A stretch of 64,000 nt of DNA from Candidatus Peregrinibacteria bacterium CG_4_9_14_0_2_um_filter_41_14 (GCA_002788755.1 PFRW01000063.1:13339-77338); one strand, 5' to 3'; positions 5,842-55,041 are shown, counted from the stretch's first letter. Numbers and translations: made by a program. Notes: generated from the sequence alone by a model not told the origin.

Positions 5842-7353
5842 ATGTCACAAGAAACATATTACATTACAACCGCAATTGCCTACGTTAACGGCCGCCCACA
5901 CATTGGCCACGCCATGGAAATGCTGCAAGCCGACTGCCTAGCCCGCTACAACCGTTTAATTGGCAATGACACCTACTTTTTAACAGGAACCGACGAATTC
6001 GGCAGCAAAGTCTACAAAACCGCCGAAGATGCCGGCATTAGTGTTGAAAAACTGGTAGACCAAAATGTCATTCCATTTCAGGAACTAACTACAAAATTAA
6101 ACTTATCACACGACCAATTTATTCGAACTTCATCCGCTCAACATCGCACCGGCGCCCAAAAACTGTGGCAAAAACTAGTCGACAACAACGATATTTACAA
6201 AGACACCTACGAAGGCCTCTACTGCATTGGCTGCGAAACCTACCTAGGGCCCAAAGAGCTAGAAGACGGCAAATGCGCCATCCACAAAAAAGAACCGGAA
6301 CTAATTAAAGAAGAAAACTACTTTTTTAAACTCTCCAAATATAACGATCAAATTAAAGAATTAATCACAAGCGATAAACTAAAAATCCACCCGGAAGCCC
6401 GCCGCAACGAAATCCTGGCCCAATTAGAAAGGGGACTGCACGACATCAGTTTTTCCAGACCAAAATCCGCACTACCTTGGGGAGTAGAAGTCCCAAACGA
6501 CTCCGACCACGTTATGTACGTATGGTGTGACGCCCTCTCCAACTACATTACCGCCTTAGACTTTGAACATGATTCCGCCCTTTTTCAAAAATATTGGCCG
6601 GCCCAAATGCAAGTCATCGGCAAAGATATTCTCCGTTTTCATGCCGGCATCTGGATTGGCATGCTCCTTGCCGCCAAGCTACCAATTCCTGAAGCAATCG
6701 GCGTCCACGGCTTTATGACAAGCGAAGGCCACAAAATGAGCAAATCCCTCGGCAACGTCATCGACCCCTTTGACATTATCGATCAATACGGTGTTGATCC
6801 AGTCCGTTATTACCTCCTTAAAGAAATCCCCACAGCCGACGACGGCGACTTTAACCACGACCGTTTTAAAGAAGTCCACCAAAGCGACCTCGCCAACAAC
6901 CTCGGCAATCTCTTTAGCCGCGTCACCGCCATGCTCCAAAAATACAACGACGGCAAAACCCTAGAACTAAAAGCCTCCGAAGCCCTAACTCAAAGCCTAG
7001 AAACAGCCTGGCAAACCTACCACCATCAACTCAAACAATTCGACCTTAAAAAAGCGGCCGAAGCCATCATGCAACTACTAGACTTTGGCAACAAATACAT
7101 CGAGCAAAACCAACCATGGACCCTCGCCAAAACCGAACCGGAACACGCAAACCAAATCCTCACCGAACTAATCGAACTCCTGCGCCACAGCTCCATTATG
7201 CTAACACCATACCTACCCCAAACCGCTGCCGTTATCCAAGAGCGCCTCAACTACGTTCCAACAGCCGATTTTCAAACATCGATCAAAACACCTCTTCCTC
7301 AAGGACATGAAATTAGCAAAGGCGAATCACTTTTCCCACGTATAGAATCCTAG
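5842..7353 (+). CDS. metG: Methionyl-tRNA synthetase (short form)
   Basis: 503 aa. YVNGRPHIGHAME (HIGH), the zinc knuckle CIGCETY...CAIHK, and KMSKSLGN (KMSKS). Confidence 0.92.
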   Translation: MSQETYYITTAIAYVNGRPHIGHAMEMLQADCLARYNRLIGNDTYFLTGTDEFGSKVYKTAEDAGISVEKLVDQNVIPFQELTTKLNLSHDQFIRTSSAQHRTGAQKLWQKLVDNNDIYKDTYEGLYCIGCETYLGPKELEDGKCAIHKKEPELIKEENYFFKLSKYNDQIKELITSDKLKIHPEARRNEILAQLERGLHDISFSRPKSALPWGVEVPNDSDHVMYVWCDALSNYITALDFEHDSALFQKYWPAQMQVIGKDILRFHAGIWIGMLLAAKLPIPEAIGVHGFMTSEGHKMSKSLGNVIDPFDIIDQYGVDPVRYYLLKEIPTADDGDFNHDRFKEVHQSDLANNLGNLFSRVTAMLQKYNDGKTLELKASEALTQSLETAWQTYHHQLKQFDLKKAAEAIMQLLDFGNKYIEQNQPWTLAKTEPEHANQILTELIELLRHSSIMLTPYLPQTAAVIQERLNYVPTADFQTSIKTPLPQGHEISKGESLFPRIES

Positions 7354-7685
7354 TTAGCCACAGAGACCAATAAATCGAATACAGTGGAAACAATTGCGTA
7401 AGACAGAATCAGGATTAACAAAGCCACAACGGCCCAAATTAGACCTGATTTTGCTTTGCCCATTTGCTCATCATCACCAACCGAAATCACATACCTAAAC
7501 CCCGCAATAATAATAAAAATAATGGCAAGCGCACCGGCAAATTGAATCGCCGTTAACACAAAATCTCCCACTAATTTAGAAGCCTGCTCCTCAATCGTAC
7601 CACCCTTAATGGCGGGCAGATTCTCAGGACGAACATCATCCGGCAAACTTATTTGAGCAATTTGTAATTGTAGCCAACTCAACAT
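7350..7685 (-). CDS. VirB2/TrbC-like (T4SS-pilin-type) small membrane protein, paralogue 1
   Basis: 111 aa. C-terminal module is TM helix - GDDEQMGKAK loop - TM helix. No obvious signal peptide. The same module occurs in the four upstream genes. Confidence 0.55.
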   Translation of the reverse strand: MLSWLQLQIAQISLPDDVRPENLPAIKGGTIEEQASKLVGDFVLTAIQFAGALAIIFIIIAGFRYVISVGDDEQMGKAKSGLIWAVVALLILILSYAIVSTVFDLLVSVAN

Positions 7686-7696
7686 TTTTACAGTTT

Positions 7697-8134
7697 TTAA
7701 AGATTAACAATAACGCGCAACACACCAGACACAAGCGCAAATGCCCCACCAACAATGGCTGCCCCCAGCAACATATGAATAATTAAATCTTTCAACTTGG
7801 TCACTTCATCCTCATCACCTCTCGACAAAATCATTCTAATACCGGCATAAACCAGCACAATAAAAATCACAATTCCCATTGCATACAAAAATAGATTTAC
7901 CGCTTGCGGCAAAATATCGGTAATTAAATTTCCTTTGGGAAGGGCCACTGTCCGTCTTGCCCTTTCAGCATCAATTTCATCTTGGGTAACAGTAGAATCC
8001 GCAGGTATTTGATCTACAACCGGCGGCTTAGAAAACAATTTCTCCGGCGAAGGAAAACTAAGTGCCAAAGCACCGTTAGTTGACGTTAAAACTAATAAAC
8101 CACCAATTATAATGTTTACAAAAAAATTTCGCAT
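7697..8134 (-). CDS. VirB2/TrbC-like pilin-type protein, paralogue 2
   Basis: The ORF track starts at 8176 (TTG). The ATG at 8134 gives a clean signal peptide (MRNFFVNIIIGGLLVLTSTNGALA) and removes the overlap with the upstream gene. C-terminal module is TM - RGDEDEVTKLK - TM. Confidence 0.55.
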   Translation of the reverse strand: MRNFFVNIIIGGLLVLTSTNGALALSFPSPEKLFSKPPVVDQIPADSTVTQDEIDAERARRTVALPKGNLITDILPQAVNLFLYAMGIVIFIVLVYAGIRMILSRGDEDEVTKLKDLIIHMLLGAAIVGGAFALVSGVLRVIVNL

Positions 8135-8135
8135 C

Positions 8136-8666
8136 TTATTTAAAAGGTAAAGAACTAATAATCTGAACAATTGCAAAACTCAACAATGCCACAATTAAAC
8201 CAACAATCGAATACAAAGCCGCATTTTTAGCCTTAGTAGCCTTATCCTCATCGCCAAGTGTGGTAAAGTACATCGCTCCTGCATAAAGTAAAACAAGAAA
8301 CGACGCCAACGCAATCAGCCCAATTAATAATTTTGTAATTGATGGCAACACCGTTTTCAGAAAATATTGGCGAGCCACCTCAGGATCACTCAAGTCTGAC
8401 GCACTAATTCCCGGCACACCGTCGGGTTGGGGGAGAACTGGTATGGTGTATTCTTTAACGGGGGGGACATATGTAAATTGCTCACATTCAGGCGACAACT
8501 CAACTCCTGCATCTGCACGTCCTTCACATATACCTTTCAAAATAGCTTGTGCCGTTTCTTGCTGAGCGGGTGTCAACTCATCCGTAGCAGGAGCAGTATC
8601 CTGCGCCATAGCCGTAACCGGCAACAACAGAAGCAAAAACGATAATGTAATCAATATTTTTTTCAT
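8136..8666 (-). CDS. VirB2/TrbC-like pilin-type protein, paralogue 3
   Basis: 176 aa. Signal peptide MKKILITLSFLLLLLPVTAMA, a 2-Cys ectodomain, and the C-terminal module TM - LGDEDKATKAK - TM. Confidence 0.55.
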   Translation of the reverse strand: MKKILITLSFLLLLLPVTAMAQDTAPATDELTPAQQETAQAILKGICEGRADAGVELSPECEQFTYVPPVKEYTIPVLPQPDGVPGISASDLSDPEVARQYFLKTVLPSITKLLIGLIALASFLVLLYAGAMYFTTLGDEDKATKAKNAALYSIVGLIVALLSFAIVQIISSLPFK

Positions 8667-8687
8667 AATTAAAATTAAACAAAAATA

Positions 8688-9941
8688 TTACCTCATTGAA
8701 CCACTCTCAGTAGTCGCTGCCTCCTCTGCTGCCGCCTCTGTGGCCGCCTCCTGCAATAATTGCTTCTGCTGATCCTGAACATCTATAGGTGTAAAGAAAG
8801 TCGGATTAACAGCATAAAGTATTATTCCGGATAAAAATAAGACAGCCAAAGCAATAATCGACTGTACAATTCGTCCTTTCGCCTCATCAATTGCTTCGCC
8901 ACCGGACGCACTAATTTGAATCCCACTGACCATAATCACTAAAACGGCAATTACACCAACAATTCCCGCCGCCCACCTGTAAATGAAACCAATATAACTC
9001 TTTAGCAAATTAACGCCACTATCTGCCCAAATCGCTTGAACTTTATCGCAATAAACAACTGTTGGCAAAACACCGGTCTCATTACCGGCAACATTTAATT
9101 TATAACTACCATTATCCTGTCTAACTAAAGTCACCGAACTCAAATTACTTCGAGTTGGCACGCACTTCTCCACAATATAAGATTCACAGTCCGTAGGTCT
9201 AATCGCATAGTGATTTGGCGCTCCGGGCACAGGCTGTAATTCTCCTTTACTATCACGCACAAAATTAAGTTCACAAATTTTTGCACGATTATACACATTT
9301 TCATTACTAATGGGCTCTTCCAAAATCGTCACTAAATTACCCAGCAAAATCGCATCCTGCAATTGAGCAAACTCGGTATCTGTACGCTCACAAATCGATG
9401 TATCCGCACTTGTTAAGTTCACACAACTACTCCCCATCGTACCAAGCAATGTTTTTTTCTGTGCTGCTTGCAGGTTTTGTTGTTCAATCACTAAATCATC
9501 AACCGCATCACAGTCAGCTTTCATCGAATTAATATTACGATTTGCAAGAAATTTATTAATCGCAGCAATCTTATCTTGTAAAACTTTTTTTTCATCCACT
9601 TTCTCTGCTGCAAGCTTATTCAATTCAGTCTCTAATACTGCTTGTGTTCTTGGCCCATCAAAGATCGCGTTCGCTAACCTATCGCATGTAGGCTTTGAAC
9701 AATAATTACTAATTGACGTCACCGTTTTTCTGGCAAGCTTTGCACTCTCATCATCGTCACAAAAAGTTTTGATAGCTACTAGTAAATCAGCTTTATTCCC
9801 TGCCTCAATATCATTTATCAACTCATCAACATTACCATTAACTCCTGTTGACAGTGAATCATTATTCTGTGCCAAAACAGGCAAAAATGCATAAGGCAGA
9901 CATAACACCAACAACATCAAAATCAATAATATTTTTTTCAT
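8688..9941 (-). CDS. Cys-rich secreted protein with C-terminal VirB2/TrbC-like two-helix module, paralogue 4
   Basis: 417 aa. Signal peptide, a roughly 300-aa ectodomain with many Cys, then TM - SGGEAIDEAKGR - TM and an Ala/Glu/Thr-rich tail. Confidence 0.5.
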   Translation of the reverse strand: MKKILLILMLLVLCLPYAFLPVLAQNNDSLSTGVNGNVDELINDIEAGNKADLLVAIKTFCDDDESAKLARKTVTSISNYCSKPTCDRLANAIFDGPRTQAVLETELNKLAAEKVDEKKVLQDKIAAINKFLANRNINSMKADCDAVDDLVIEQQNLQAAQKKTLLGTMGSSCVNLTSADTSICERTDTEFAQLQDAILLGNLVTILEEPISNENVYNRAKICELNFVRDSKGELQPVPGAPNHYAIRPTDCESYIVEKCVPTRSNLSSVTLVRQDNGSYKLNVAGNETGVLPTVVYCDKVQAIWADSGVNLLKSYIGFIYRWAAGIVGVIAVLVIMVSGIQISASGGEAIDEAKGRIVQSIIALAVLFLSGIILYAVNPTFFTPIDVQDQQKQLLQEAATEAAAEEAATTESGSMR

Positions 9942-9942
9942 T

Positions 9943-10734
9943 TTAATAAATCAAAGCTTGAACAAATGTAACAATCATATAAGCAAAAATAACAATTACC
10001 ATTCCGGTTAACCCCAACTTAATGACGTCCTTACCTTTACTAAGCTGTTCATCATCACCGGCAGCCGTTAATAAGAAATATGCACCAATTACAATTACAA
10101 CTAAAGCAGCCAGCCCAATCATATAAACCAATAAGCCCATCATTCGCACAATAAAATCCAAAACCGGATTACCACTGGTTCCTTTAAAAAAACCGACCTG
10201 ACCAGGAGCTGTTAAAGTATCGACAGCAAAAAATTCGCTACTATTAGGTACATCACCAGTCGTATCACGCTGACCAATATAATAGCCATATTTACTATTA
10301 GCGTCCTCGGGCACATCTGTATTTACAGCACCACCTTTAGCTATAGCCAAATCCACTAACTTCTTTTCGCTATTCGCTCCAACATCATCAAACTCAAAGT
10401 TAGAATTGAAATCGTAATAAAAATACTTTTTATAATCCTCTAAAGCCTTTCCTTGCAGATATTCACCACAAACGGCACATTCCAAACGTAAATCTGACCT
10501 TGCAAGATTTGCCGGTTTAGTTTCTGGACAAAGTTTTACATATTTATCACATTGATACTTAATTTTATCCGCACCAATCTGTGCATTATTTATAGACTCT
10601 GCTTCGGTAAAACTCATTTCTTCATCTGCAGCGTCCTGTGCCATCGCCACTCCCTGTACTAAACCCGCACATAAAACTAGAGCAATTAATCCGACACCCA
10701 ATTTTTGTAAGTAGCTAATTAAACGCATAAGCAT
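9943..10734 (-). CDS. Cys-containing secreted protein with C-terminal VirB2/TrbC-like two-helix module, paralogue 5
   Basis: 263 aa. Hydrophobic N-terminus, Cys cluster (YQCDKYVKLCPE...LECAVCGEY), then the C-terminal module TM - AAGDDEQLSKGK - TM. Confidence 0.5.
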   Translation of the reverse strand: MLMRLISYLQKLGVGLIALVLCAGLVQGVAMAQDAADEEMSFTEAESINNAQIGADKIKYQCDKYVKLCPETKPANLARSDLRLECAVCGEYLQGKALEDYKKYFYYDFNSNFEFDDVGANSEKKLVDLAIAKGGAVNTDVPEDANSKYGYYIGQRDTTGDVPNSSEFFAVDTLTAPGQVGFFKGTSGNPVLDFIVRMMGLLVYMIGLAALVVIVIGAYFLLTAAGDDEQLSKGKDVIKLGLTGMVIVIFAYMIVTFVQALIY

Positions 10735-10795
10735 ACTTGGTAACTAAATCTCCTTATATTACCACAAAAATCGACCATTGTCACCTATTTAGTCG

Positions 10796-13030
10796 CTAGC
10801 CATTACTAATTAAGATCTCACGAGGTTTAGCACCATTAACCGGTCCAACGACGCCGTTTTCCTCAAGCAGATCTAATAAACGGGCGGCACGCGCATAACC
10901 AATCCGTAAGCGACGTTGCAGTAGGGAAGCAGAAGCCTTATTACTATCCAAAATAACACTTAAGGCATCGTCGTATAAGTCATCTTCACCGCCACCACCG
11001 GCCATGCCGGCGGCACTTGCCTTGGTTTTACAGTCCACAATTTCGTCTTTGTAATCCGGTTCAATTGTTAGCTTAAGCCTATCCGTCACCCTCTTAATTT
11101 CCTTTGGCGAAATATAAATACCCTGAACACGAATTGGTTTGCCTAAATCTTTAGGCAAATAAAGCATATCACCCTTACCAAGCAAATCTTCGGCACCCAT
11201 CGCATCCAAAATTGTGCGTGAATCAATACTAGAAGTCACCGCATACGAAATACGAGTTGGAATATTAGCCTTAATTAAACCGGTAATCACATCCACAGAA
11301 GGCCTTTGCGTTGCCACAATTAAATGGATACCAACCGCCCGCGCCATTTGCGCAATCCGACAAATAGAAGCCTCCACCTCTTTACCGTTTGCCATCATTA
11401 AATCGGCCAACTCATCAATCACAATCACAATTTTTGGCATTTTCTTTAAACGACTATCATCCTCATTATATTCATCAATATTACGACAACCGGCATGCGA
11501 CAACGTTTCATAACGACGAGACATCTCGGCAACCGCCCAATTTAAGGCATTAGCAGCTTTCTCCGGATCGGTAACTACCGGCGTTAGCAAATGGGGGATA
11601 CCGTTATAATCTGTGAGCTCTACTCGCTTTGGATCAATTAAAATCAACTTTAGTTCACTTGGTGAATTTTGATACAGCAGAGAAATTAAAATAGTGTTCA
11701 TACCAACCGATTTACCGGCACCCGTAGCACCAGCAATTAATAAATGCGGCATATCCTGAATGTTGGCCACAATCGGTATTCCACTAACATCTCGTCCCAA
11801 CGGACACAACAAGTCAGACTTATTAACATTAGCCGCAAACTGTGGCGAACTAATAATTTCACGTAAATATACAACTGAACGTGCAGCGGAAGGTACTTCA
11901 ATACCAACTAAGGATTTCCCCGGAATGGGTGCTTCAATACGCACATTTTGAGCCGCCAAAGCTAAGGCTAAATCGTTCTTTAAACCTGTAATTTTAGATA
12001 ATTTCACTCCTTCACTCGGCTTTAAAGTGTACTGAATAACTGTTGGTCCTACATGCACATTTTTCATGACAACCTTAATCCCAAACTGTTCCAACTTTTT
12101 GCGAATAATTTCCGCATTACTACGTAACATTTTGTCATCCGCCGACACTTCAGAACTTTTATCATCAAGTAATTCAAGCGAAGGATACTCCCACTCAATT
12201 ACTTTAGTCTCCAACGTTTCTTCCACTCCATCCATTTCATGAATAGGTAGACGCACCTGTACTTCATCTTCAATTGGCTCATCTGCCCGAGCCACCTTAG
12301 CCTCATTCAACATTACCGGCTTAAGCTCGGGTATATCCGGTTTAATAATTCTAATGCCATCTTCATCCTGGTTAAGCGGTAAAGCTTTTTTTTCTTCAGC
12401 AGCCTTTTTAGGTTTTGCACTTTTTTTACTGCCTCGATTCATAAACAACACACCAAAAAACTTAATTACCGAACTTTCAAACGTTAACAAAGCGGCAATT
12501 AAAAACAAGCTTACAAAAATGACGGCCGAAGCAACTGGACTAATTTGCAACTTTGCTCGAATCAAATAATTAGTCGCAAAACCAATTGCACCTCCATGCG
12601 TGCCTTCTTTTGCAATTATCCCTATCTGCTCTATGGGAATTGATAAATGTAAAATACTTAAAATCGACACAAAGAATAACGCCACACCGCTAATTTTTGC
12701 CAAATTAATCTTGATCTTATTGTTAAACAAAATCAAAACACCAAAAAACATTAACAAGATGGGAATAAAATACAGACCCCATCCCAAAATTGGCGCCAAG
12801 GCGTTACGCATAAATACAGAGACAACACCAAGTGCATCAAAAAAACTGAGGACAATTAACGCTCCAACAGTAATAAGCACAATGCCCCAAATTGCACTTT
12901 TTACTTCTTCATCCAAATTCAATTCAAGCTGTTTTGTTTTAGTCTTACGGCGGCGAGTTTTTCTAGGTCCAAAAAACAAATTTTCCAAAAACCCTCCACT
13001 AGTACGGCGCCTCTTTCTACGTCGAGCCAT
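10796..13030 (-). CDS. ftsK: DNA translocase FtsK/SpoIIIE
   Basis: 744 aa. Arg/Lys-rich N-terminus with 4-5 TM helices. Walker A GATGAGKSVGMN, Walker B VIVIDELADLM, and a C-terminal gamma winged helix (LLQRRLRIGYARAARLLDLLE). Confidence 0.9.
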   Translation of the reverse strand: MARRRKRRRTSGGFLENLFFGPRKTRRRKTKTKQLELNLDEEVKSAIWGIVLITVGALIVLSFFDALGVVSVFMRNALAPILGWGLYFIPILLMFFGVLILFNNKIKINLAKISGVALFFVSILSILHLSIPIEQIGIIAKEGTHGGAIGFATNYLIRAKLQISPVASAVIFVSLFLIAALLTFESSVIKFFGVLFMNRGSKKSAKPKKAAEEKKALPLNQDEDGIRIIKPDIPELKPVMLNEAKVARADEPIEDEVQVRLPIHEMDGVEETLETKVIEWEYPSLELLDDKSSEVSADDKMLRSNAEIIRKKLEQFGIKVVMKNVHVGPTVIQYTLKPSEGVKLSKITGLKNDLALALAAQNVRIEAPIPGKSLVGIEVPSAARSVVYLREIISSPQFAANVNKSDLLCPLGRDVSGIPIVANIQDMPHLLIAGATGAGKSVGMNTILISLLYQNSPSELKLILIDPKRVELTDYNGIPHLLTPVVTDPEKAANALNWAVAEMSRRYETLSHAGCRNIDEYNEDDSRLKKMPKIVIVIDELADLMMANGKEVEASICRIAQMARAVGIHLIVATQRPSVDVITGLIKANIPTRISYAVTSSIDSRTILDAMGAEDLLGKGDMLYLPKDLGKPIRVQGIYISPKEIKRVTDRLKLTIEPDYKDEIVDCKTKASAAGMAGGGGEDDLYDDALSVILDSNKASASLLQRRLRIGYARAARLLDLLEENGVVGPVNGAKPREILISNG

Positions 13031-13067: not shown

Positions 13068-14066
13068 CTAAAGCTTGGGACGATACAAAGCAAAATCAAA
13101 AATTGGCAAGAAGCTGTCCGGCGCCACCGAAACCTCCAAAGTCCGCTCCGCACCACCCGCAATCCCAATCGATTTAATCTTAGACGTAGGCGATACTAGG
13201 TTTCCACTACCTGTCACTGTATTCAAATTCGCCAAATCACGCACACGATAATATACAGTTGCCGCATCCTTTCTTTCTAAATCAAAAGTTCCGCTTAACT
13301 TAGCCGGATCCAAAAAGTTAGTTAAAATCAAATAGTTTTGCTCATGGTTTTGCATAAACTCGCCAATACGCATTTCCGACCCCACTAAATCCGAATTTTC
13401 ATCAAATGTAGAAGGGAAAAAAGTACCAACATTCCAGTCACCATTTGGCCCTAAACTTACTGGCGAACCGGGCGAAGTCCCCTTCGACCTTGTCTGATCG
13501 CTTGCCGGCACAAACTCATTTAAAGAGTCGATTTCACCAGTCTTCTTATTTTTACCAAACAACTTCCATCGCAAAATATCAAACTGATTTAACTGCGTCG
13601 ATTCCAAAAAGCCAGTCAGTGGATAATAGTACTCAACAACAAAGTCACTAATATCGTCTGTAAAAGGCAACTTAATACTTTCATTCAACTTTAAACTATT
13701 GTAACTAACACTCTCATCCAAAACCGTACCTAGCAAACGCAACTGATAATCCGCCAAAACCGGAATTCGATTTGTTCGGCTAGCTACCTTATATTTTACT
13801 GCCACCATCGGATCACTCGAAATCTCCAAAATTTCCGTATTCGCCTCAAAACCGGGTTTATTCTCCTGAACATCCAATAAAGCCAACTCTATACCAGATT
13901 CGGCCGCATAATAAGCCCGTGTCTGTGTTAGCAAACCGCTAACAATCCGTGTCTCGCGACTAATTAATGAGCTCACACCCACAGTTACCAAAGTCAGCAA
14001 GCCGGCAAACACCAAAGCCACCAACAATGCACTTCCTTTCCGATTTTTCATTTGTAATTTTTTCAT
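13068..14066 (-). CDS. PilX/GspK-like minor pilin
   Basis: 332 aa. N-terminus KGSALLVALVFAGLLTLV is a hydrophobic prepilin-like helix lacking Glu5, as in PilX-type minor pilins. Last gene of the pilin run. Confidence 0.55.
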   Translation of the reverse strand: MKKLQMKNRKGSALLVALVFAGLLTLVTVGVSSLISRETRIVSGLLTQTRAYYAAESGIELALLDVQENKPGFEANTEILEISSDPMVAVKYKVASRTNRIPVLADYQLRLLGTVLDESVSYNSLKLNESIKLPFTDDISDFVVEYYYPLTGFLESTQLNQFDILRWKLFGKNKKTGEIDSLNEFVPASDQTRSKGTSPGSPVSLGPNGDWNVGTFFPSTFDENSDLVGSEMRIGEFMQNHEQNYLILTNFLDPAKLSGTFDLERKDAATVYYRVRDLANLNTVTGSGNLVSPTSKIKSIGIAGGAERTLEVSVAPDSFLPIFDFALYRPKL

Positions 14067-14692
14067 TAAAAGCGAACGTTATAAAATCGAGAAGAAACTG
14101 TAGTTTGCATAGAAATCCCCGGACGATCCGGATAAGCCTTTGCTCTAGCCAAAGCATTAATAGTTAAACTTGGTTGATACAAATTCTTTGAATCGATCCG
14201 CGTTTCCACATCATAAGGATTACTTGTAGGCCTCAATGTTAAATCAAACTGCAAAAACTCCGTATTCGCCGTATCCAATTTTCGATAAATAACTGCCGGC
14301 CACTCATTTTGACGACTTGCTCGCGTTTGCACCGCATATTCTAAATCCACAAAATCCAGTTCTTCTACCGTTTTTGTCTTAGCACTTAAAATATGTCGCT
14401 CCAAACCATCCTTACTTACAAAAGCTTGCACTTGATAATTATGAATATTGGGATCACAAACCGCAGTCTTAAAACAATTATAATCAATCGCATACTCCTT
14501 AACATCAGTACTTATCAAAGCCAAAATTTCGTTTAACTCTGAATAAACTTTTCTGTATCGATTTGCCTCAATTTGCACACCAATTAAATGGATAAAAGAA
14601 CTCAGCACAATACCAGTAAAGATCATAAATACAGTTATTGCGACTGTAATCTCAATCAATGTAAATCCGCTCTGTTTTTGAGTAAGCTTCAT
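14066..14692 (-). CDS. Prepilin-type N-terminal cleavage/methylation domain protein (minor pilin)
   Basis: 208 aa. QSG|FTLIEITVAITVFMIF matches the class III signal (G-F-x-x-x-E). Confidence 0.65.
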   Translation of the reverse strand: MKLTQKQSGFTLIEITVAITVFMIFTGIVLSSFIHLIGVQIEANRYRKVYSELNEILALISTDVKEYAIDYNCFKTAVCDPNIHNYQVQAFVSKDGLERHILSAKTKTVEELDFVDLEYAVQTRASRQNEWPAVIYRKLDTANTEFLQFDLTLRPTSNPYDVETRIDSKNLYQPSLTINALARAKAYPDRPGISMQTTVSSRFYNVRF

Positions 14693-14707
14693 AAGCCAGA
14701 TTAAATT

Positions 14708-15295
14708 TTAGAGTGGACCTTGTTTCCAATCGGTCAGTACGGTTACGTACTTTACTTCCTTTACAATCCCGTTTAAATCAAACAAAGTGACAGCAGTCAC
14801 CTTAAGTGGTGGCAGCTCTTCATATTGAGCAACCTTACTACCACTCATCACTTCCAACTCTACATACCGACTAAAACGCGTTGTCTCACCGGTTGCATCG
14901 TGTGTATAAAACTGACCCTTATTATTCTTAGCCAAATAAAGTTTGTTGGCCTCAAAGATAGGGCCGGTCGCTCTCATTATCCAAGGCGAATCACCAATAT
15001 TCCGACGATCAATTTGGACAATACTACTACTGCCACCCCGTGGCCAAAGGCTTTCACCCCAAAGGCGATCGGAATTTGCATTAAAACTAAAATTTTGCAA
15101 CCAGTTACTATCCCGCATATTGCGTACAATTTCCACAGCCTCACTATTTAAATAGTTAGCTGTTATATAACTTTGATTTAAAAGATTACTTTGTAGATTA
15201 CGACTAACTAAACTAGCCACAGCCACAAACGTAATTGTAATAATTGCCAAGGCAAAAATTACTTCCAACAATGAAAACCCTTTGCGCTTATTCAT
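14708..15295 (-). CDS. Prepilin-type N-terminal cleavage/methylation domain protein (minor pilin)
   Basis: 195 aa. RKG|FSLLEVIFALAIITI class III signal. Confidence 0.65.
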   Translation of the reverse strand: MNKRKGFSLLEVIFALAIITITFVAVASLVSRNLQSNLLNQSYITANYLNSEAVEIVRNMRDSNWLQNFSFNANSDRLWGESLWPRGGSSSIVQIDRRNIGDSPWIMRATGPIFEANKLYLAKNNKGQFYTHDATGETTRFSRYVELEVMSGSKVAQYEELPPLKVTAVTLFDLNGIVKEVKYVTVLTDWKQGPL

Positions 15296-15821
15296 TGTTA
15301 GCGGGGTTAGAATCTGTAAAGCGAGCTGTAGCCGGTATCAAAAAAACTTCACGTTCTTTTTCGGTATTCTTTAAATTTAACAACATCCTAACCACAGTCG
15401 AATCATTAATCGATTCAAATGGAAAAAAGATGTCACCATGCGGCGGTGTATAATAATAAGTAAAGCGATCAATCTCACGAGAATCGATTTTAATCCCTCT
15501 AACCAACAACTTGTTATCTGCAAACGGAGTCACCTTACTGGGAATTTTATCACATTTTTCGACTGGATTTAAATAAGGCGATTCAACAAAAAAAACGCCA
15601 TCTTCATCAACTAAAACACCTTTACAAATCGGCAAGTTTTTTGAGGAAACCTCAGTCTTAAGCGACTGCAATTGGCTTACAAATTCATCGCTCAATAAAG
15701 ATAACTTATAACTTTGGACAGTTCTATTATATCCACCCATAATTATTGTCGAAAGTAGTGCAATTACACTAATGACCACAACCAATTCAATCAGTGAAAA
15801 ACCTTTAGAATTATGCACCAA
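15288..15821 (-). CDS. Type IV pilin / pseudopilin
   Basis: 177 aa. SKG|FSLIELVVVISVIALLSTI class III signal. Overlaps both neighbours (8 and 11 nt). Confidence 0.65.
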   Translation of the reverse strand: MVHNSKGFSLIELVVVISVIALLSTIIMGGYNRTVQSYKLSLLSDEFVSQLQSLKTEVSSKNLPICKGVLVDEDGVFFVESPYLNPVEKCDKIPSKVTPFADNKLLVRGIKIDSREIDRFTYYYTPPHGDIFFPFESINDSTVVRMLLNLKNTEKEREVFLIPATARFTDSNPANNE

Positions 15822-16974
15822 CGCTTTGTGTTAAATTGAAAATAGGTAATAAAATTGCTAAAGCAAACAGAACCACAAACACAGCCACAATAATAATGAC
15901 CACCGGACCAATAATTGTATTAATGTTCTTTAACTTATAACGTAGCTCTTCTTCATACTGTTTAGAAATCTTTAAAGACAAATCCCCCAAACTGGCTGAC
16001 TTTTCACCGATCTCAATCATTTGAGTAACATTATCCGGAAACAACCATGGTACTTCACGCAAAACTTCTGAAATTTTTGAACCGGATTGCACTCGTCCAA
16101 CCAACTCTAAAATTTTAAATTGATACAAACTATTTGTAATCGCTCGACTGGTAATTTTTAAAGCTGTTTGAATCGGGATTCCAGATTCAATCAAAACTCC
16201 CAAAGTGCTAGTAAATTCCGCAATGTTAAAATTACGGACAACATCACCAAAATAGGGGAGACCTAAAATAAAGGCATCAAACTTAAGGCGACCATCGTGA
16301 CTACCAACATAAATCTTAAAAATAGTCCAAGCAATACCCACAAAAGCCGCCAACACAATCCAATAAGTTGAGAAAAACTCACTAGAGTTAATAAAGAGAC
16401 TTGTTAGCCCGTTAATCTCCAATCCATTTTCATTATATAAAGTTCGTAATTCCGGAATTACAAATGTAATCATAATAATCGCTGCAATTACCAACACAAT
16501 TCCAATAATTGCCGGATAAACCAACGCCGCCTCTAAATCCTGCCGCACTTTGGCTTGTCTTTCCGCCTGTTCTGCCAATCGTTTTAAAGAACGATCCATA
16601 GCACCTACGGCCTCACCAGTTTCAATAATACCCAACTCGGTTTTTGTAAATACATCACTAAACTCACCCATACTTTTAGATAAACTTTCCCCACGTTCTA
16701 CAGCATAATAAACCGTACTCAATATTCGATAAAAACGCTCATTTACAGCTCTATCCTTCAAAATTCGTAAAGACTGAAGTGTAGTCACACCAGCATTAAT
16801 CAACACACTAAACAACTGATAAAACAAAGCTTTCTCTTTATTACCAATTTTATGTCTTTCAATCCACCAATGGCGCAATTTATCCATTCCAGACAAGTCA
16901 TCCACCGGGGTAACGCCGTAAATAAACTCTTCAAAACGCTTACTTCGTCTCGATAATTTTTCAGACAAATCCAT
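15811..16974 (-). CDS. pilC: Type IV pilus platform protein PilC (GspF family)
   Basis: 387 aa. Two GspF-type repeats separated by TM helices, with a third TM helix at the C-terminus. Typical PilC/GspF length and layout. Confidence 0.85.
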   Translation of the reverse strand: MDLSEKLSRRSKRFEEFIYGVTPVDDLSGMDKLRHWWIERHKIGNKEKALFYQLFSVLINAGVTTLQSLRILKDRAVNERFYRILSTVYYAVERGESLSKSMGEFSDVFTKTELGIIETGEAVGAMDRSLKRLAEQAERQAKVRQDLEAALVYPAIIGIVLVIAAIIMITFVIPELRTLYNENGLEINGLTSLFINSSEFFSTYWIVLAAFVGIAWTIFKIYVGSHDGRLKFDAFILGLPYFGDVVRNFNIAEFTSTLGVLIESGIPIQTALKITSRAITNSLYQFKILELVGRVQSGSKISEVLREVPWLFPDNVTQMIEIGEKSASLGDLSLKISKQYEEELRYKLKNINTIIGPVVIIIVAVFVVLFALAILLPIFNLTQSVGA

Positions 16975-16985
16975 ATCTAATTATG

Positions 16986-17501
16986 TTAAGAATGGTAAAC
17001 TTCCATGCTAACCGAAAAATTCACCTGCACCGGCAACTCATCACCAATAGTTAACGTAAAATTATGTAAATTATAGAAACGCTCTTGCGCCTCTAAATCA
17101 TATAAAAATTCCAAGAAATCATACAAACCACCAGTTACATTAAGCGCAATTTGCACGCTATCAATAAACTGACTACCTGTTGTATTTTGCCCAAAACTAA
17201 TATTTTCCAATTTCATGTTATTTGTACTAGCCATATCGGCCAATTGTTCAATTAAGGCATCTTGATCAAACTTATTTGGGATACTAATTTCCAAAATGCG
17301 TTGATCGATTTCACCAACCTCACCCGTAGCTTGTTCCGGATTTGTTTGCTCTTGTCGTTTGGCAATCTCTGCCTTTAAACTAACTACACTCAAATCAAGT
17401 TCACTATTACTTTTGCGTAGTGGCGCAAAGGCAAAAACATACACAACAGTAATTGCTAAAAGGACAATCAACGTTACAACTAATTTTCGTTTATTGTTCA
17501 T
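16986..17501 (-). CDS. PilO-like pilus assembly protein
   Basis: 171 aa. Short basic N-terminus, one TM helix, a coiled-coil segment and a small alpha/beta C-terminal domain. Sits directly upstream of pilC. The call rests on architecture only. Confidence 0.45.
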   Translation of the reverse strand: MNNKRKLVVTLIVLLAITVVYVFAFAPLRKSNSELDLSVVSLKAEIAKRQEQTNPEQATGEVGEIDQRILEISIPNKFDQDALIEQLADMASTNNMKLENISFGQNTTGSQFIDSVQIALNVTGGLYDFLEFLYDLEAQERFYNLHNFTLTIGDELPVQVNFSVSMEVYHS

Positions 17502-18225
17502 TTGCTGGAGTTAAAGGAACATCGCGACTACGCAACTGTCGAGCCACATCCGTAATTTGTTCATCTAAGGTTGTGTCAATATTTGGATCTGGAGTAGTGA
17601 CGGCTCCGGTTAATTCGGTTTTTTCAATTAAAGTATTAACCGGATCTTCTGTAACTGCGTATTTCAAATTCAAAGTATAAGTTAAAAGCTCCTGACCAAC
17701 TTGATCAAATACACTTGAAATATTTGGAATAAATAAGTCCTTATAAAAGGCTCGTCGACCAAATTCACGCAATAGTACCGCTGTATCTGTATATGGATCA
17801 GCCGCACCGGATCTTGTTTTAACGCTAATACTAATATTGCCTTCTCTGCTACCACTTAAGGCTTGGTAGGTAACTAATCTTTTATCGACTTCCGCACTTT
17901 GAGGGTTCGTCTCAAACAAACGCTTTAAAACATTTGTCCAATACACACGTTCAGCTGCTTTTGTGGCTAAGAATTCCTTCTTAGTTGCCAAAGTCGCCTT
18001 AGACTCCGACTCACCAACTTGCGAATCCAATCGCTGCACAGTTGCTGCCAAATCTGCTTCCTCAGCTTTTAAAGATCGATTTTGCCAAAACATCACACCA
18101 CTCCAAACCACTAAAACTACCAAAACAAAGATAATAAATAGATTTAATAGCGAAGATCGTTTAGTCTCTAACGGATTTTCTCCATTAGGAGACGTAACTT
18201 CAGGATTGTTGATAGGAGGTTCCAT
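17491..18225 (-). CDS. PilN-like bitopic membrane protein (hypothetical)
   Basis: 244 aa. Cytoplasmic N-terminus, one TM helix (LLNLFIIFVLVVLVVWSGVMF), a coiled coil and a C-terminal domain. First gene of the pilus string. The call rests on architecture and position only. Confidence 0.35.
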   Translation of the reverse strand: MEPPINNPEVTSPNGENPLETKRSSLLNLFIIFVLVVLVVWSGVMFWQNRSLKAEEADLAATVQRLDSQVGESESKATLATKKEFLATKAAERVYWTNVLKRLFETNPQSAEVDKRLVTYQALSGSREGNISISVKTRSGAADPYTDTAVLLREFGRRAFYKDLFIPNISSVFDQVGQELLTYTLNLKYAVTEDPVNTLIEKTELTGAVTTPDPNIDTTLDEQITDVARQLRSRDVPLTPANEQ

Positions 18226-29224: not shown

Positions 29225-29253
29225 TTGACGCTTTACGAAGAGCACACTATATT
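29225..29253 (+). promoter_or_regulatory. Putative sigma-70-type promoter for the sigma-r4/HARE gene
   Basis: TTGACG (29225-29230), 17-nt spacer, TATATT (29248-29253). The TTG that the ORF track uses as a start codon is the -35 box. Confidence 0.45.
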
Positions 29254-29293
29254 TTATATATACATAAATATTAGTGACTTAAATCATACATAT

Positions 29294-30364
29294 ATGATAA
29301 CTAACGCTATCAGCAATACTAATATTCAATCTCTAGTTGACCCACTAGAAATATTGAACACTCTACTCAAAACATTAAACAATAAGGAACAAGAGATAAT
29401 CTCAAGACGATATGGTCTTGGTAATAAAGAAATTGACACACTTGCCTCAATTGGCAAAGATTTTACAGTTACAAGAGAACGAATCAGACAAATTCAAGTT
29501 TACGGTTTTAAAAAACTACAACGTAACGTCCATAAAACAAAACTAACCGACCTTCAAAATTGGGCACTAAATACACTTAAAGAACAAGGAGACATTGTAA
29601 CTGAAAAGACATTTGAAAACCTGCTCAAAACTAAGTTCCCACAATACAAAAACAACATTCAAGAGCTTAAATTAGCCTCAATCCTATTTAATGAGATTGT
29701 ACACGAAAATAATAAAATCAATATTCGTGTACATTTTAGAAATAGTAACATCAGCTTAAAAAGTATTAAAAATATTTGCACTACCGCACGTAAAATTCTA
29801 AAAAACAAAGCAGACAGTATGAGTCAAAATCAACTAGTGTCGCAAATTCAAGATCAAATAAAAACGGACAATTTAAATCTAAGGAAAAAATTGATTCTTG
29901 CTGCCGTAAAACTAGATCGTCGCATTAAAGTTAAATCAGACTCAATTAGTTTAACAAAATGGCGACACGTAAATCCAAAAACACTTTACGATAAAATCTT
30001 TTTTGTACTAAGAAAGCAAAAAAGCCCTCTACATTTTTCCGAAATAACAAACAAAATCATAGACAAAAAATTTGACAATAAGAGCGTCAGTCAACAAGCT
30101 GTACATAACGAACTAATTAACAGAACCGACTTCATTCTTGTTGGCAGAGGCGTATATGCACTAGCAGAATGGGGATACAAAGAGGGAACCGTAACCCAAG
30201 TAATTCAGGATATTTTGCAAACCGAAGGTCCCCAATCATATGAACAACTGCTCGACTCAGTTCTCCAACGTCGCAAAGTTAAGCAAATAACTGTTCAAAT
30301 TAATATCAACAATAAAAAGTTATTCGCGCGCGATCACAATGACGTTGTCAGTTTAATGAGTTAA
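29294..30364 (+). CDS. Sigma-70 region-4-like HTH protein with C-terminal HARE-HTH-like domain (paralogue A)
   Basis: Start re-set to the ATG at 29294 (MITNAIS). EQEIISRRYGLGNKEIDTLASIGKDFTVTRERIRQIQVYGFKKLQ resembles sigma-70 region 4.2. PLHFSEITNKI...AVHNELI...DFILVGRGVYALAEWGY resembles the HARE-HTH of the RNAP delta subunit. No region 2/3 motifs seen. Confidence 0.65.
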   Translation: MITNAISNTNIQSLVDPLEILNTLLKTLNNKEQEIISRRYGLGNKEIDTLASIGKDFTVTRERIRQIQVYGFKKLQRNVHKTKLTDLQNWALNTLKEQGDIVTEKTFENLLKTKFPQYKNNIQELKLASILFNEIVHENNKINIRVHFRNSNISLKSIKNICTTARKILKNKADSMSQNQLVSQIQDQIKTDNLNLRKKLILAAVKLDRRIKVKSDSISLTKWRHVNPKTLYDKIFFVLRKQKSPLHFSEITNKIIDKKFDNKSVSQQAVHNELINRTDFILVGRGVYALAEWGYKEGTVTQVIQDILQTEGPQSYEQLLDSVLQRRKVKQITVQININNKKLFARDHNDVVSLMS

Positions 30365-31420
30365 CTACTCCGACTCCGACAATGACGTTTTTAAGGCACT
30401 AATATGGGAATCAGCTAATTCTTGGGTAATATAACCTTGTAAAGCTAAATCTTTAATAGATTTTTCCATAGTTTGCATGCCGTCACGCATTCCTGTTTCC
30501 AGTACAGATTGAATTTGATAAGTCTTACCTTTACGAATCAAATTTTCAACTGCGTTATTAGCAAACAAAATTTCTAAAGCAGCAACACGCCCTTTCCCAT
30601 CAGTTGTTTTCAATAATTGTTGCCAAACTACAGCTCTTAAACCTTGAGCAAGCTGAGCTCTAATTTGATTTTGTTGCTCTGTTGGAAAAATATCAATTAC
30701 ACGATCTACAGATTTTGCTGCACCACTGGTATGCAGCGTAGATAAAACTAAATGACCAGTTTCTGCGGCTGTTAGAGCCAACGCAATTGTTTCATGATCT
30801 CGCATTTCACCAATGAGAATAACATCAGTACTTTCGCGCAAAGCTGCTTTTAAAGCAGTAGCAAAACTAGCTGTATGTGTTCCAACCTCTCTTTGTTGTA
30901 CTAAAGACTTTTTATTCTTATAAATAAACTCAATTGGATCCTCAATTGTCAAAATATTATATTGATACTTTCGATTTAATTCCTCCACAATCGCAGCCAA
31001 AGTTGTAGACTTACCGGAACCGGTAGGCCCTGTTATCAATACAATACCTTGTTTAAAGTCTGTAATGCGCTTGAGCTGGTTCGGCATGTTTAAATCGTCT
31101 AAAGACACAACATCCTCAGGAATCAGACGGAAAACAGCACCTATGCCTCTGTGCTGCATAAAAACATTAACACGAAAACGACCAATTCCAGGCACATCTA
31201 AGGCATAGTCAATATCCAAACTACGAGCAAAAGCAGCCTTTTGCACCTCTGTCATAGTTTCTAAGATATAAGTCTCAGCCATCTGCTTAGACAAAACCGG
31301 ATGTTGTTCAATTTGTACTAAATCACCATGCAACCTAATACCAGGTTTTACGCCAGATGAAATATAAATATCAGAAGCTTTATACTGAAATGCAGTTTGA
31401 AAGATTTTTAGAAGTTCCAT
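30365..31420 (-). CDS. pilT: Type IV pilus retraction ATPase PilT
   Basis: 351 aa. ASDIYISSG...RLHG, Walker A GPTGSGKSTT, Walker B ILIGEMRD, and TGHLVLSTLHT. Confidence 0.88.
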   Translation of the reverse strand: MELLKIFQTAFQYKASDIYISSGVKPGIRLHGDLVQIEQHPVLSKQMAETYILETMTEVQKAAFARSLDIDYALDVPGIGRFRVNVFMQHRGIGAVFRLIPEDVVSLDDLNMPNQLKRITDFKQGIVLITGPTGSGKSTTLAAIVEELNRKYQYNILTIEDPIEFIYKNKKSLVQQREVGTHTASFATALKAALRESTDVILIGEMRDHETIALALTAAETGHLVLSTLHTSGAAKSVDRVIDIFPTEQQNQIRAQLAQGLRAVVWQQLLKTTDGKGRVAALEILFANNAVENLIRKGKTYQIQSVLETGMRDGMQTMEKSIKDLALQGYITQELADSHISALKTSLSESE

Positions 31421-37818: not shown

Positions 37819-39732
37819 CTAATCTATGTTCTTTTTTAATCGATAAACAATATTAGCAACTTCAATTCTACTCAGACCTTTATCGGGGGTCTCGACTAAA
37901 TCATAATCAATAAGCCCTAATTCTAAGCCTTCTTGTAAATATTTTGCATACCAACCATTTACATCGAGCACATTCTCATATTTACTATTTATTTGAGGAT
38001 CTACATCGATTTTCATGGCCGCAAATAACATTTTCAAAAACTCAACCACATTAACCTGCTCCGAAGGACGTAACATACCATCGGGATAACCATTAATAAC
38101 ACCATTTTTCAAAGCTACAGATACATAATCAATATACCATCCAGCAACATCCACGTCGGCAAATGCAACTTTTGTTTTTGGAACATCTAATTTAACCCCA
38201 ACACTCCCTAAAACAAATTTTAATGCTTCAACACGAGCAACAGGACGATCAGGCTGAAAAGACCCATCCGGATAACCATTAATAACGCCTTCCTTACGCA
38301 AATAACTCACAATTCCATTGTCACTGCTATTTGCCTCAACATCTGTAAACTCCTTAACAATTAAGGATTCGCTACCAATAACAAAAGTTTCATTTTTGAT
38401 ATTAAAGCGCAACCGTCCAGATTCTAAAGGCATAAATATTAATTTTGATTCACCATTTACAAAATTACTAGCCTCTAACATGCCATTAACAAAACGTGTT
38501 CGTACGCCATCAGTATCAATCTTTAACGGATCATTTGAAAAACGATAAGTATAGTCATATTTTGACCCATCAGCTTTAACTAGCAATAAATTTAAAACTG
38601 CTTGCTTATCAACAACCAAAGGACCATCAACACTAATTTTTAATTGCAAATCACCAATCATCTTAACCGTTACAGGTTCAATCACTAGGCTTGACGTCTC
38701 ATTTGGCACAACTGCAATAATCGGGGGAGTATTGATTTCCACTCGCTCAACCGGTTTTAAGGCTGCCTCCGTTTCTTTTATCGGCTCATTACTCACACTA
38801 TTTGCCATATATACTCCATCGGAATTTAACCATTTCTGCACCCAAACCATGCCATTAATTGTAAACTTACGACCATTATCAATCCCCAAACCTTTATTAA
38901 TGGAATCAACAAAATCCAAACCTGCATCACGCGACTCTTGACCAGTAAATGGCCAATATGGATGAAATCCCGCAGATTCTTTATCGATTTGGAAATGAAC
39001 ATGCTCAGTAGTTGCAAATCCGGTATCACCAACTAAACCAATCACTTGTCCTTTTTGCACGTGATCACCTTCTTTAACAGCAACCGAACTTAAGTGACTA
39101 TAACTCGCAAAATAGTTAACTGCAGCATCAGAATCTTCAAACGAAGGTACATTTGGCATCAACACAACAACATGATTACCAAAACCAGCATCCTGCTTTC
39201 CAACTTTAGATACAATACCATTAGCAATATTAACAACCGGTGTGCCCGCCAAAGCCTTAATATCAATAGCAGCATGACTTCCTACATTTTCCTTACCATC
39301 TAATTCATAATTACCTAAATAAGGTACTGAATAAGTAATTTTTGCATTACGCTTTGGATCACTATAACTAATTTCATTTGCCGGTACGGCCAATTCCTCT
39401 GATTTATAGGCAACAAGTGGCACTTTATATGAATCTGGGACATCTGCAAAATTAGCATCCCAATACTGTTCAGGCAAATTTTGCCAACTAATTGTTTGTG
39501 CCAATGGCATAACTGTACCATTAAACACAATATTCGCTGCTTTCTCATAAATCAGATTTGTTTGCAAGAAGCCACCACTATACTGTAATGAACCTAATAA
39601 ACTTACCAAGGCAAGAGAGATCACCGTTCCTTTTACTATATGGTTTTTCCATACCCCTGAAAGCCGAGATTTAACACTAACTAAATACTGTTGCATATAA
39701 TTTTTCTCATGTATAACATTTAAGTATACCAA
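37819..39732 (-). CDS. M23 (LytM-type) peptidoglycan endopeptidase with three C-terminal SLH domains
   Basis: 637 aa. M23 motifs HAAIDI, GNHVVV and GDTGFATTEHVHFQI. The C-terminus carries three SLH-like repeats (FTDVEAN...INGYPDGSFQPDRPVARVEA; FADVDVAGWY...INGYPDGMLRP; VLDVNGWYAKY...). Confidence 0.8.
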   Translation of the reverse strand: MVYLNVIHEKNYMQQYLVSVKSRLSGVWKNHIVKGTVISLALVSLLGSLQYSGGFLQTNLIYEKAANIVFNGTVMPLAQTISWQNLPEQYWDANFADVPDSYKVPLVAYKSEELAVPANEISYSDPKRNAKITYSVPYLGNYELDGKENVGSHAAIDIKALAGTPVVNIANGIVSKVGKQDAGFGNHVVVLMPNVPSFEDSDAAVNYFASYSHLSSVAVKEGDHVQKGQVIGLVGDTGFATTEHVHFQIDKESAGFHPYWPFTGQESRDAGLDFVDSINKGLGIDNGRKFTINGMVWVQKWLNSDGVYMANSVSNEPIKETEAALKPVERVEINTPPIIAVVPNETSSLVIEPVTVKMIGDLQLKISVDGPLVVDKQAVLNLLLVKADGSKYDYTYRFSNDPLKIDTDGVRTRFVNGMLEASNFVNGESKLIFMPLESGRLRFNIKNETFVIGSESLIVKEFTDVEANSSDNGIVSYLRKEGVINGYPDGSFQPDRPVARVEALKFVLGSVGVKLDVPKTKVAFADVDVAGWYIDYVSVALKNGVINGYPDGMLRPSEQVNVVEFLKMLFAAMKIDVDPQINSKYENVLDVNGWYAKYLQEGLELGLIDYDLVETPDKGLSRIEVANIVYRLKKNID

Positions 39733-39752
39733 AGAAAAAAGTAAATATCAAT

Positions 39753-41779: not shown

Positions 41780-41924
41780 ACAAACAATTAAACAATATCA
41801 AATCCTTTTACTATACCATAATCCCAAGCACCGTGGATAAATTAGGTATTGCCAAAAAGAAGACTTATTACATAAATAAGCTTCGGAAATTATACACAAA
41901 ACTAATTTTTAAACAAGTAAGAGA

Positions 41925-55040: not shown

Positions 55041-55041
55041 T

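Follow-up and report, generated by a model that had tools for sequence, protein, structure and literature searches.

What do five neighbouring genes for small, pilin-like membrane proteins build in a bacterium where no core gene of a type IV secretion system (T4SS) lies beside them? The question is posed by an array on the minus strand of a 64,000-nucleotide (nt) stretch of DNA, called the window below, from Candidatus Peregrinibacteria bacterium CG_4_9_14_0_2_um_filter_41_14 (GCA_002788755.1, PFRW01000063.1:13339-77338), a Crystal Geyser metagenome-assembled genome (MAG) belonging to the candidate phyla radiation (CPR). An original prediction, drawn from the nucleotide sequence, had interpreted the array as five VirB2/TrbC-like paralogues that may form interchangeable or co-assembling pilin subunits. 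The genes, designated O1 to O5 in transcription order (g1 to g5 for the corresponding positions in related genomes), are best explained as members of the Patescibacterial T4SS_pilin family (PF18895, VirB2-like), paralogues that separated long ago and are not redundant. With moderate confidence, their products would depend on one another as obligatory partners and assemble together into a single structure of the envelope, a VirB2-like pilus or stalk belonging to a dispersed T4SS of the Patescibacteria type.

An operon of five two-helix proteins

The five open reading frames (ORFs) of 263, 417, 176, about 145 and 111 amino acids (aa) were found where the original prediction had placed them and their close spacing was confirmed, the gaps being 1, 21, 1 and 11 nt in transcription order (Table 1). 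An ATG located 1 nt past the O3 stop gives O4 the 145 aa of the public gene calls, while a mechanical ORF list starts it at a TTG and yields 159 aa. The O5 stop and the end of the convergent gene metG overlap by 4 nt. Six independent assemblies contain the complete array with 100% identity, and contigs of Candidatus Peregrinibacteria bacterium CG11_big_fil_rev (GCA_002792505.1) carry a gene for exactly the O2 protein.

Each protein ends in the same module, formed by two strongly hydrophobic segments with a G(D/G)(D/E)…K.K loop between them. The loops had been quoted exactly and read GDDEQLSKGK in O1, GGEAIDEAKGR in O2, GDEDKATKAK in O3, GDEDEVTKLK in O4 and GDDEQMGKAK in O5. At the opposite end, O1 to O4 have a hydrophobic segment that resembles a signal peptide, with an AxA-type site behind it; these correspond to the signal peptides announced for four of the five proteins.

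The assignment to the T4SS pilin family is borne out by profile searches. Over its two-helix module of ~71 residues, PF18895 matches all five proteins with 26.3 (O1), 29.1 (O2), 35.6 (O3), 37.7 (O4) and 36.9 bits (O5), so that four exceed the gathering cutoff of 26.6 bits and O1 stays 0.3 bits under it; the same family is matched by 39/40 orthologous modules of relatives. Tandem VirB2-like arrays of Patescibacteria were defined as at least two PF18895 or PF04956 genes, in tandem or one gene apart, on a Patescibacterial chromosome and with low mutual identity (PMC12102498). The five consecutive PF18895-type genes of this Peregrinibacteria host, whose products share 20-25% pairwise identity, are an array of this kind.

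The more specific designation VirB2/TrbC-type held in part only: the PF18895 match stands, while the TrbC/VirB2 family itself (PF04956) is matched below threshold by O3 and O4 (19.9 and 18.8 bits; cutoff 27.9) and not at all by O1, O2 and O5. Among the related modules, 7/40 match PF04956 at E<0.01, the best at 1.5e-5. NF045849, which describes a pilin-like protein of Mycoplasma integrative and conjugative elements (ICE), gives 32.6 bits with O5, 30.8 with O3 and 27.5 with O1, all under its 40-bit cutoff. AlphaFold2 (AF2) confidently models long antiparallel hairpins, that of O3 consisting of helices 95-135 and 140-172 with a predicted local distance difference test (pLDDT) score of 85-92, a modelled fold that would be compatible with VirB2 and is not diagnostic of it. 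The N_methyl prepilin motif (PF07963) has no match in any of the five proteins.

Five modules in a fixed order

Species-representative genomes were scanned with an alignment of the O2 family. Of 183 genomes found, the best 80 were analysed; apart from a few MAGs labelled 'Nitrospirota', all of them are Peregrinibacteria, Peribacteria or Gracilibacteria. A hidden Markov model of the module was then built and run over all ORFs. The contig scan was far more informative than word-indexed searches with O1 and O3, each of which returned only three proteins (for O1, out of 5.8 billion).

The array is conserved among these best 80 of the 183 genomes, which together with its identity across assemblies speaks against a chance pattern. 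In the 63 loci where it is clear of contig ends it comprises five genes in 55 cases and four in 8. The third gene of all eight four-gene arrays holds two modules and is a fusion of g3 and g4, hence the comparison of array size suggested with the original prediction yields five modules in 63/63 complete arrays. The linkers of the fusions, ~50 aa long, contain a short hydrophobic stretch and an AxA motif (PTAYAA, PIAHAA and similar) that, judged from the sequences, is a remnant of the g4 signal peptide. They have no extra strong hydrophobic segment, which is consistent with both modules keeping the shared topology with the two termini outside; cleavage of the fusion outside the membrane might still occur.

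Orthology follows position. O2 matches g2 of relatives with 98-110 bits and O3 matches g3 with 63-81 bits, and in L011 and L012, the nearest two species, the best match of every protein from O1 to O5 is at the same place in the array. Orthologues in the same position are more alike than paralogues of one array. Throughout the clade neither the five modules nor their order varies, and the array belongs to the conserved core genome of Peregrinibacteria and Peribacteria. The typical locus, with pilT, five pilin genes and metG, occurs also in three MAGs labelled Nitrospirota or Nitrospirae (L015, L024 and L062), most likely through binning contamination of the public MAGs.

Ectodomains and predicted topology

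The N-terminal ectodomains had been described as graded along the operon. Their decrease is not monotonic, since in the window as well as among relatives the second gene exceeds all others in size (median lengths 162, 242, 155, 148 and 148 for g1 to g5). The ectodomain of O1 has ~165 aa and evolves fast; that of O3 has ~80 aa. The two largest are rich in cysteines, as had been noticed, with 4 in the mature ectodomain of O1 and 10 in that of O2, against 2 in O3 and 0 in O4 and O5. Cysteines are present in the g2 ectodomain of 60/62 five-gene arrays and their number is always even (4-10). Even counts are likewise found in 21/21 g1 and 14/14 g4 ectodomains that contain cysteine. This parity together with the signal peptides argues that the ectodomains are outside the cytoplasm, where the original prediction had placed the variable domains, and supports the disulfide bonds that it had proposed for the larger ones. 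We infer that O1 to O4 are Sec-exported and that the ectodomains are probably disulfide-bonded and face the outside.

O2 is composed of a signal peptide, a helical N-terminal region, a β-rich core, a segment preceding the transmembrane hairpin, the hairpin and an acidic C-terminal tail of 35 aa. Four cysteines, an EEP motif, the pre-transmembrane segment YIGxIYRWAA and the C-terminal motif NPTFF are conserved between O2 and its g2 orthologues. The β-rich domain spans residues ~170-306 of the AF2 model (pLDDT 80-88). Foldseek found no match to the O2 model in the PDB (best E 0.06, TM-score about 0.1), and a VirB5-like or adhesin fold was discarded for this ectodomain on that basis. An exhaustive search of 1.84 billion representatives with the g2 ectodomain profile retrieved only 128 clusters. 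In every cluster the ectodomain ends ~80 residues before the C-terminus, which shows that it occurs only fused to the pilin module.

The signal peptide is kept in 58/62 g5 orthologues. Comparison with g5 of a close relative (L011:4295-4660) indicates that O5 lost it by 5' truncation: the orthologue begins MFKNVIAILIGSLLPLVCSA followed by QIQLDENFRPE, and O5 begins MLSWLQLQIAQISLPDDVRPE. The N-terminal tail of O5 is 37 aa long and has no signal peptide to export it.

A putative envelope structure and its machinery

That the five proteins are obligatory partners rather than interchangeable variants is suggested by the fixed number of modules, by orthology that follows position and by the fusions of g3 to g4; of the two options left by the original prediction, co-assembly is thus favoured. 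The N-terminal ectodomain and the C-terminus of each would be outside and the short acidic/basic loop cytoplasmic. The five proteins, each in a defined position, would make up one hetero-oligomeric envelope structure, a short pilus or stalk of a monoderm-like, Patescibacteria-type T4SS whose ATPase and channel genes would be located elsewhere in the genome. The g3, g4 and g5 products might provide the core subunits and g2 a conserved structural adaptor or tip piece, while the fast-evolving g1 ectodomain may be the contact surface to host or environment. This reading is drawn by analogy with the essential six-gene array of Southlakia epibionticum, and the coupling-protein ATPase described below, in the window and in one relative, also speaks for it. 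The lack of linkage to virB4 here matches the organization reported for the class Gracilibacteria, in which virB4 is mostly encoded apart from the remaining T4SS components (PMC12102498).

Several observations weigh against a T4SS pilus or stalk. No VirB4, VirB6, VirB3/PrgI or TrsD was found in the window, in a scan that covered its ORFs of at least 100 aa apart from some short ones of 108-151 aa; the statement in the original prediction that no T4SS core gene is adjacent is upheld. No VirB4-like ATPase was found within 10 kb of the array in ~75 other genomes, in a search limited to those flanks, and among 34 large unannotated ORFs clustered from the vicinity of the relatives' arrays only two have a Walker A motif, one being FtsH and the other a protein with no assignment. 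The virB4 neighbourhood that is the basis of the name of PF18895 is present neither in the window nor in the 10-kb flanks of the relatives' arrays. The actual neighbours of the arrays are type IV pilus (T4P) genes (pilT, pilC and minor pilins). A 40-sequence profile of the module matched no solved pilin among all PDB sequences, the hhalign probability is 0.24% against VirB2 (8cue) and 0.27% against F TraA (9moq), and Foldseek with the O3 model retrieved helical hairpins of a generic kind only, none of them a pilin. All three approaches being negative or non-specific, direct homology to the solved pilins could not be demonstrated. We know of no PF18895 member that is experimentally characterised or solved, and 'pilin' is a prediction for the family. 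O5 of this genome has no N-terminal hydrophobic segment or signal peptide, and the filamentous state of the five proteins is predicted from their genes, no filament having been seen.

The only T4SS-related ATPase in the window is a VirD4/TraG-like coupling protein encoded 31 kb from the array (T4SS-DNA_transf 39.9 bits, TrwB_AAD_bind 37.7 bits, and NF045973), which the original prediction had missed. It also carries a domain of ~370 aa with no family assignment. Its gene is followed by those of a protein with a 3D and four PG_binding_1 domains and of an M23 peptidase with SLH domains. This segment (37819-44384, minus strand) could represent a dispersed module that is related to T4SSs and includes hydrolases of the cell wall. 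In one Peribacteria locus (L077:7024-9117) a gene for an ATPase that resembles type IV coupling proteins (TrwB_AAD_bind 50.7 bits) takes the place of pilT and overlaps g1 by 4 nt; it is the sole direct T4SS-type linkage among the 83 loci.

Genomic context and alternative readings

The neighbourhood of the array suggests that the five hairpin proteins could serve the T4P machine: co-expressed with the retraction ATPase PilT, they would be an accessory of the T4P in the membrane or at the surface and act, for instance, as platform, conduit or anchor when the pilus retracts or in uptake. We regard this as rather unlikely. The gene pilT is directly upstream of g1 on the same strand in 49/83 loci, often overlapping it, with gaps of -10 to +40 nt that are typical of translational coupling, and it is found anywhere in the locus in 61/83. 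The encoded ATPase was identified as PilT (453 bits with TIGR01420), and its assignment as VirB11 was ruled out by the corresponding 66 bits. A cluster of PilX, pseudopilin, PilC and PilO genes stands just past metG in 57/83 related loci and flanks the array in the window, and the missing VirB4 near the arrays, mentioned above, points the same way. On the other side, the most constant neighbour is the unrelated metG, convergent and directly downstream of the array in 66/83 loci, so synteny alone cannot prove a functional link to pilT and its stability may by itself explain the association. An unrelated gene, usually on the opposite strand, precedes the array in 22 loci. The lineage of the window is rearranged: ftsK and the T4P cluster, both overlooked in the original prediction, are directly upstream of the array and pilT, 63% identical to the copy of a related locus (L007), has moved 20 kb away, yet the array is intact. 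To our knowledge no T4P system uses PF18895-type proteins. The homologous array of Southlakia epibionticum sits inside a T4SS locus (PMC10633639).

At the head of the T4P cluster of the window, where PilM/PilN would be expected, there is a 244-aa gene (17491-18225, minus strand). It has no Pfam match and is conserved in all assemblies of the organism.

A second alternative, to which we likewise assign a low probability, takes 'pilin' as just the name of the family. The proteins would form a non-filamentous hetero-oligomer embedded in the cytoplasmic membrane, for example a small channel or a scaffold, and would present the g1 and g2 ectodomains on the cell surface. Such a complex would account for the lack of detectable homology to solved pilins and for fold searches that return generic hairpins only. 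The two large ectodomains and the acidic tail of O2 would be awkward in a tightly packed VirB2-type filament, and we are aware of no PF18895 member whose filament was solved or imaged. The architecture of the five proteins nevertheless fits VirB2-type propilins in its signal peptide, its pair of long helices with a short charged loop between them and its predicted outward termini, and the sub-threshold TrbC matches recur in modules of relatives. The family, moreover, clusters with virB4 in other Patescibacteria (PMC12102498).

That the paralogues are interchangeable major pilins used for antigenic or host-range variation, the explanation proposed for Patescibacteria in PMC12102498, is quite unlikely. 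It would agree with their strong divergence, with the scarcity of O1 homologues and with ectodomains that outpace the flanking housekeeping genes: identity to the L011 locus is 81% for FtsK, 69% for GltX and 54% for MetG, compared to 63% for O5, 48% for O3, 40% for O2, 37% for O4 and 32% for O1. The invariant copy number, the order and positional orthology conserved throughout the clade, the dedicated ectodomain of g2 and the absence of any sign of recent duplication or gene conversion speak against it, as does the covalent fusion of g3 to g4 in 8 species, which is sensible for partners and not for alternatives.

The co-assembly of obligatory partners may be extended to a precise stoichiometry. 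Conjugative pili (F- and T-pilus) and the T4SS stalk of R388 are built on five-fold symmetry. The five proteins might form a hetero-pentamer with one copy of each paralogue, either as a ring of pseudo-five-fold symmetry or as a single layer in a five-start tube of VirB2 type, coupled to PilT; this is still less probable than interchangeable variants. The invariant five modules and the occasional g3-g4 fusion would then reflect the hetero-pentameric building block, and the coupling to PilT, genetic and perhaps mechanical, would stand in place of a VirB4 operon. If true, a monoderm would have a surface organelle that is a hybrid of the T4P and T4SS types.

Features of the window and related loci

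Table 1. Coordinates of the array, its neighbours and the g3-g4 fusions of relatives (window positions unless a locus is given)
Feature	Coordinates	Strand	Description or evidence
metG	5842-7353	+	convergent with the array
O5/g5	7350-7685	-	111-aa PF18895-type pilin; PF18895 match
O4/g4	7697-8134	-	145-aa PF18895-type pilin; PF18895 match, public gene calls
O3/g3	8136-8666	-	176-aa PF18895-type pilin; PF18895 match, AF2 hairpin
O2/g2	8688-9941	-	417-aa PF18895-type pilin; PF18895 match, subfamily alignment, AF2 model
O1/g1	9943-10734	-	263-aa PF18895-type pilin; PF18895 match, hydrophobicity, Cys counts
FtsK-O1 spacer	10735-10795	-	61 nt; AAGGAG ribosome-binding site and promoter-like site
ftsK	10796-13030	-	immediately upstream of O1; Pfam FtsK_SpoIIIE, alpha, gamma and 4TM domains
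T4P cluster	13068-18225	-	PilX_N, three N_methyl pseudopilins, PilC, PilO, 244-aa gene
N_methyl pseudopilin genes	14066-15821		within the T4P cluster
pilT	30365-31420	-	TIGR01420, 435 bits
VirD4/TraG-like coupling ATPase	41925-44384	-	819 aa, one N-terminal transmembrane helix; Pfam and NF045973
g3-g4 fusion	L021:10302-11099		
g3-g4 fusion	L035:10275-11336		
g3-g4 fusion	L039:10273-11184		
g3-g4 fusion	L058:10296-11423		
g3-g4 fusion	L059:10492-11286		
g3-g4 fusion	L063:10274-11068		
g3-g4 fusion	L077:10267-11124		
g3-g4 fusion	L090:10272-11054		

The spacer between ftsK and O1 contains a promoter-like site with TG (GTGACA-17-TAATAT, 10784..10756) that is a possible start of the operon. Promoter and terminator scans of the region gave counts equal to chance expectation, and the site is suggestive by its position alone.

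Other segments of the window encode proteins of different nature. Two genes on the plus strand (53457-57420) code for a membrane protein of 527 aa with PKD and 7TM_transglut domains and for a 792-aa fusion of an ATP-grasp enzyme (ATPgrasp_ST) and a MATCAP-like carboxypeptidase; the pair looks like peptide-ligation and trimming genes unrelated to the array. Two paralogues of ~370 aa with Sigma70_r4 and HARE-HTH domains are encoded on the plus strand at 29225-30364 and 50518-51609, the first adjoining the relocated pilT. SLH domains are present in an 814-aa protein together with a CAP domain (60103-62547) and in the 637-aa M23 protein (37819-39732), which indicates an S-layer or a system of anchoring to secondary cell-wall polymers in this CPR bacterium. 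Throughout positions 1-64000, all 2-kb bins have a negative GC skew (-0.12 to -0.37; cumulative -7.9), an unusually strong strand bias, and the lack of a sign change implies that the whole window belongs to one replichore.

Relation to known systems

Tandem VirB2-like arrays are already published for Patescibacteria, and the operon of Peregrinibacteria adds regularities specific to its clade that are useful without changing the category. A survey counted 441 VirB2-like/PF18895 arrays of 2-11 genes in Patescibacteria, with ~25% mean identity (Quinonero-Coronel 2025, PMC12102498), which bears out the claim of the original prediction that the family is common in CPR bacteria. In Southlakia epibionticum (ML1) a six-gene array of VirB2-like pilins, located in the T4SS locus, is essential (Wang 2023, PMC10633639; PMC12857230). 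The operon described here and its pilT receive no mention in the available portions of the Peribacteria genome paper (PMC4736985) and of the 2025 survey (PMC12102498). It shares with the known arrays the PF18895 family, tandem divergent paralogues of ~25% identity, a chromosomal location and monoderm CPR hosts. Unlike them, it has no virB4 locus around it or close by in ~80 genomes but lies between pilT and metG beside T4P genes, its modules are fixed at five, and two members have Cys-rich ectodomains, that of g2 being a conserved dedicated family.

Resemblance to the VirB2/TrbC (PF04956) and TraA pilins of the T-pilus (8cue, 8exh) and F-pilus (5ler) comprises the signal peptide, two hydrophobic helices, the short charged loop and termini predicted to be outside, together with the weak PF04956 matches of O3 and O4. 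The array proteins have no significant sequence or profile similarity to these solved pilins. In the classical systems there is usually just one gene for a major pilin, located in the T4SS operon and lacking large N-terminal ectodomains, and the pili are lipid-containing extracellular helical filaments, whereas the five-protein set is known here from genes alone. The Mbov_0395/MMCAP2_0565 protein (NF045849) is likewise a small two-helix hairpin protein of a monoderm, in a context of the mating-pair formation type FATA (MPF-FATA), but it is single-copy on a mobile ICE, in contrast to a five-gene core-genome operon in which O1, O3 and O5 fall under the cutoff of its profile.

Several divergent virB2-type genes in a row are also found in Bartonella and Anaplasma, where the paralogues are thought to be immune-evasion variants (as cited in PMC12102498). 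The Peregrinibacteria arrays differ from these by a fixed copy number, orthologous positions and the presence of fusions, which point to obligatory partners. Minor-pilin sets of T4P (FimU-PilVWXE priming complexes) are, like the array, fixed sets of small subunits encoded beside T4P genes, some of them with larger tip domains. They belong to another fold and family: the array proteins lack the N-methylation/prepilin-peptidase motif and are anchored by a two-helix hairpin rather than by a single N-terminal helix.

Significance

Gram-positive-type T4SSs normally have no pili. The arrays of Patescibacteria were presented in a 2025 review as an exception among monoderm T4SSs (PMC12857230). Which structure the VirB2-like pilins of monoderm Patescibacteria form, and why there are several of them, is a current puzzle. 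In the only species tested, they are essential. The Peregrinibacteria array constrains the answer: the modules are always five and keep their order, fusion joins two adjacent ones in some species, and of the subunits one carries a conserved domain that is probably disulfide-bonded and another a hypervariable domain. These comparative constraints argue for a defined hetero-oligomer over antigenic variants. Linkage to pilT and T4P genes with no linkage to virB4 raises the testable question of which machine handles the array proteins.

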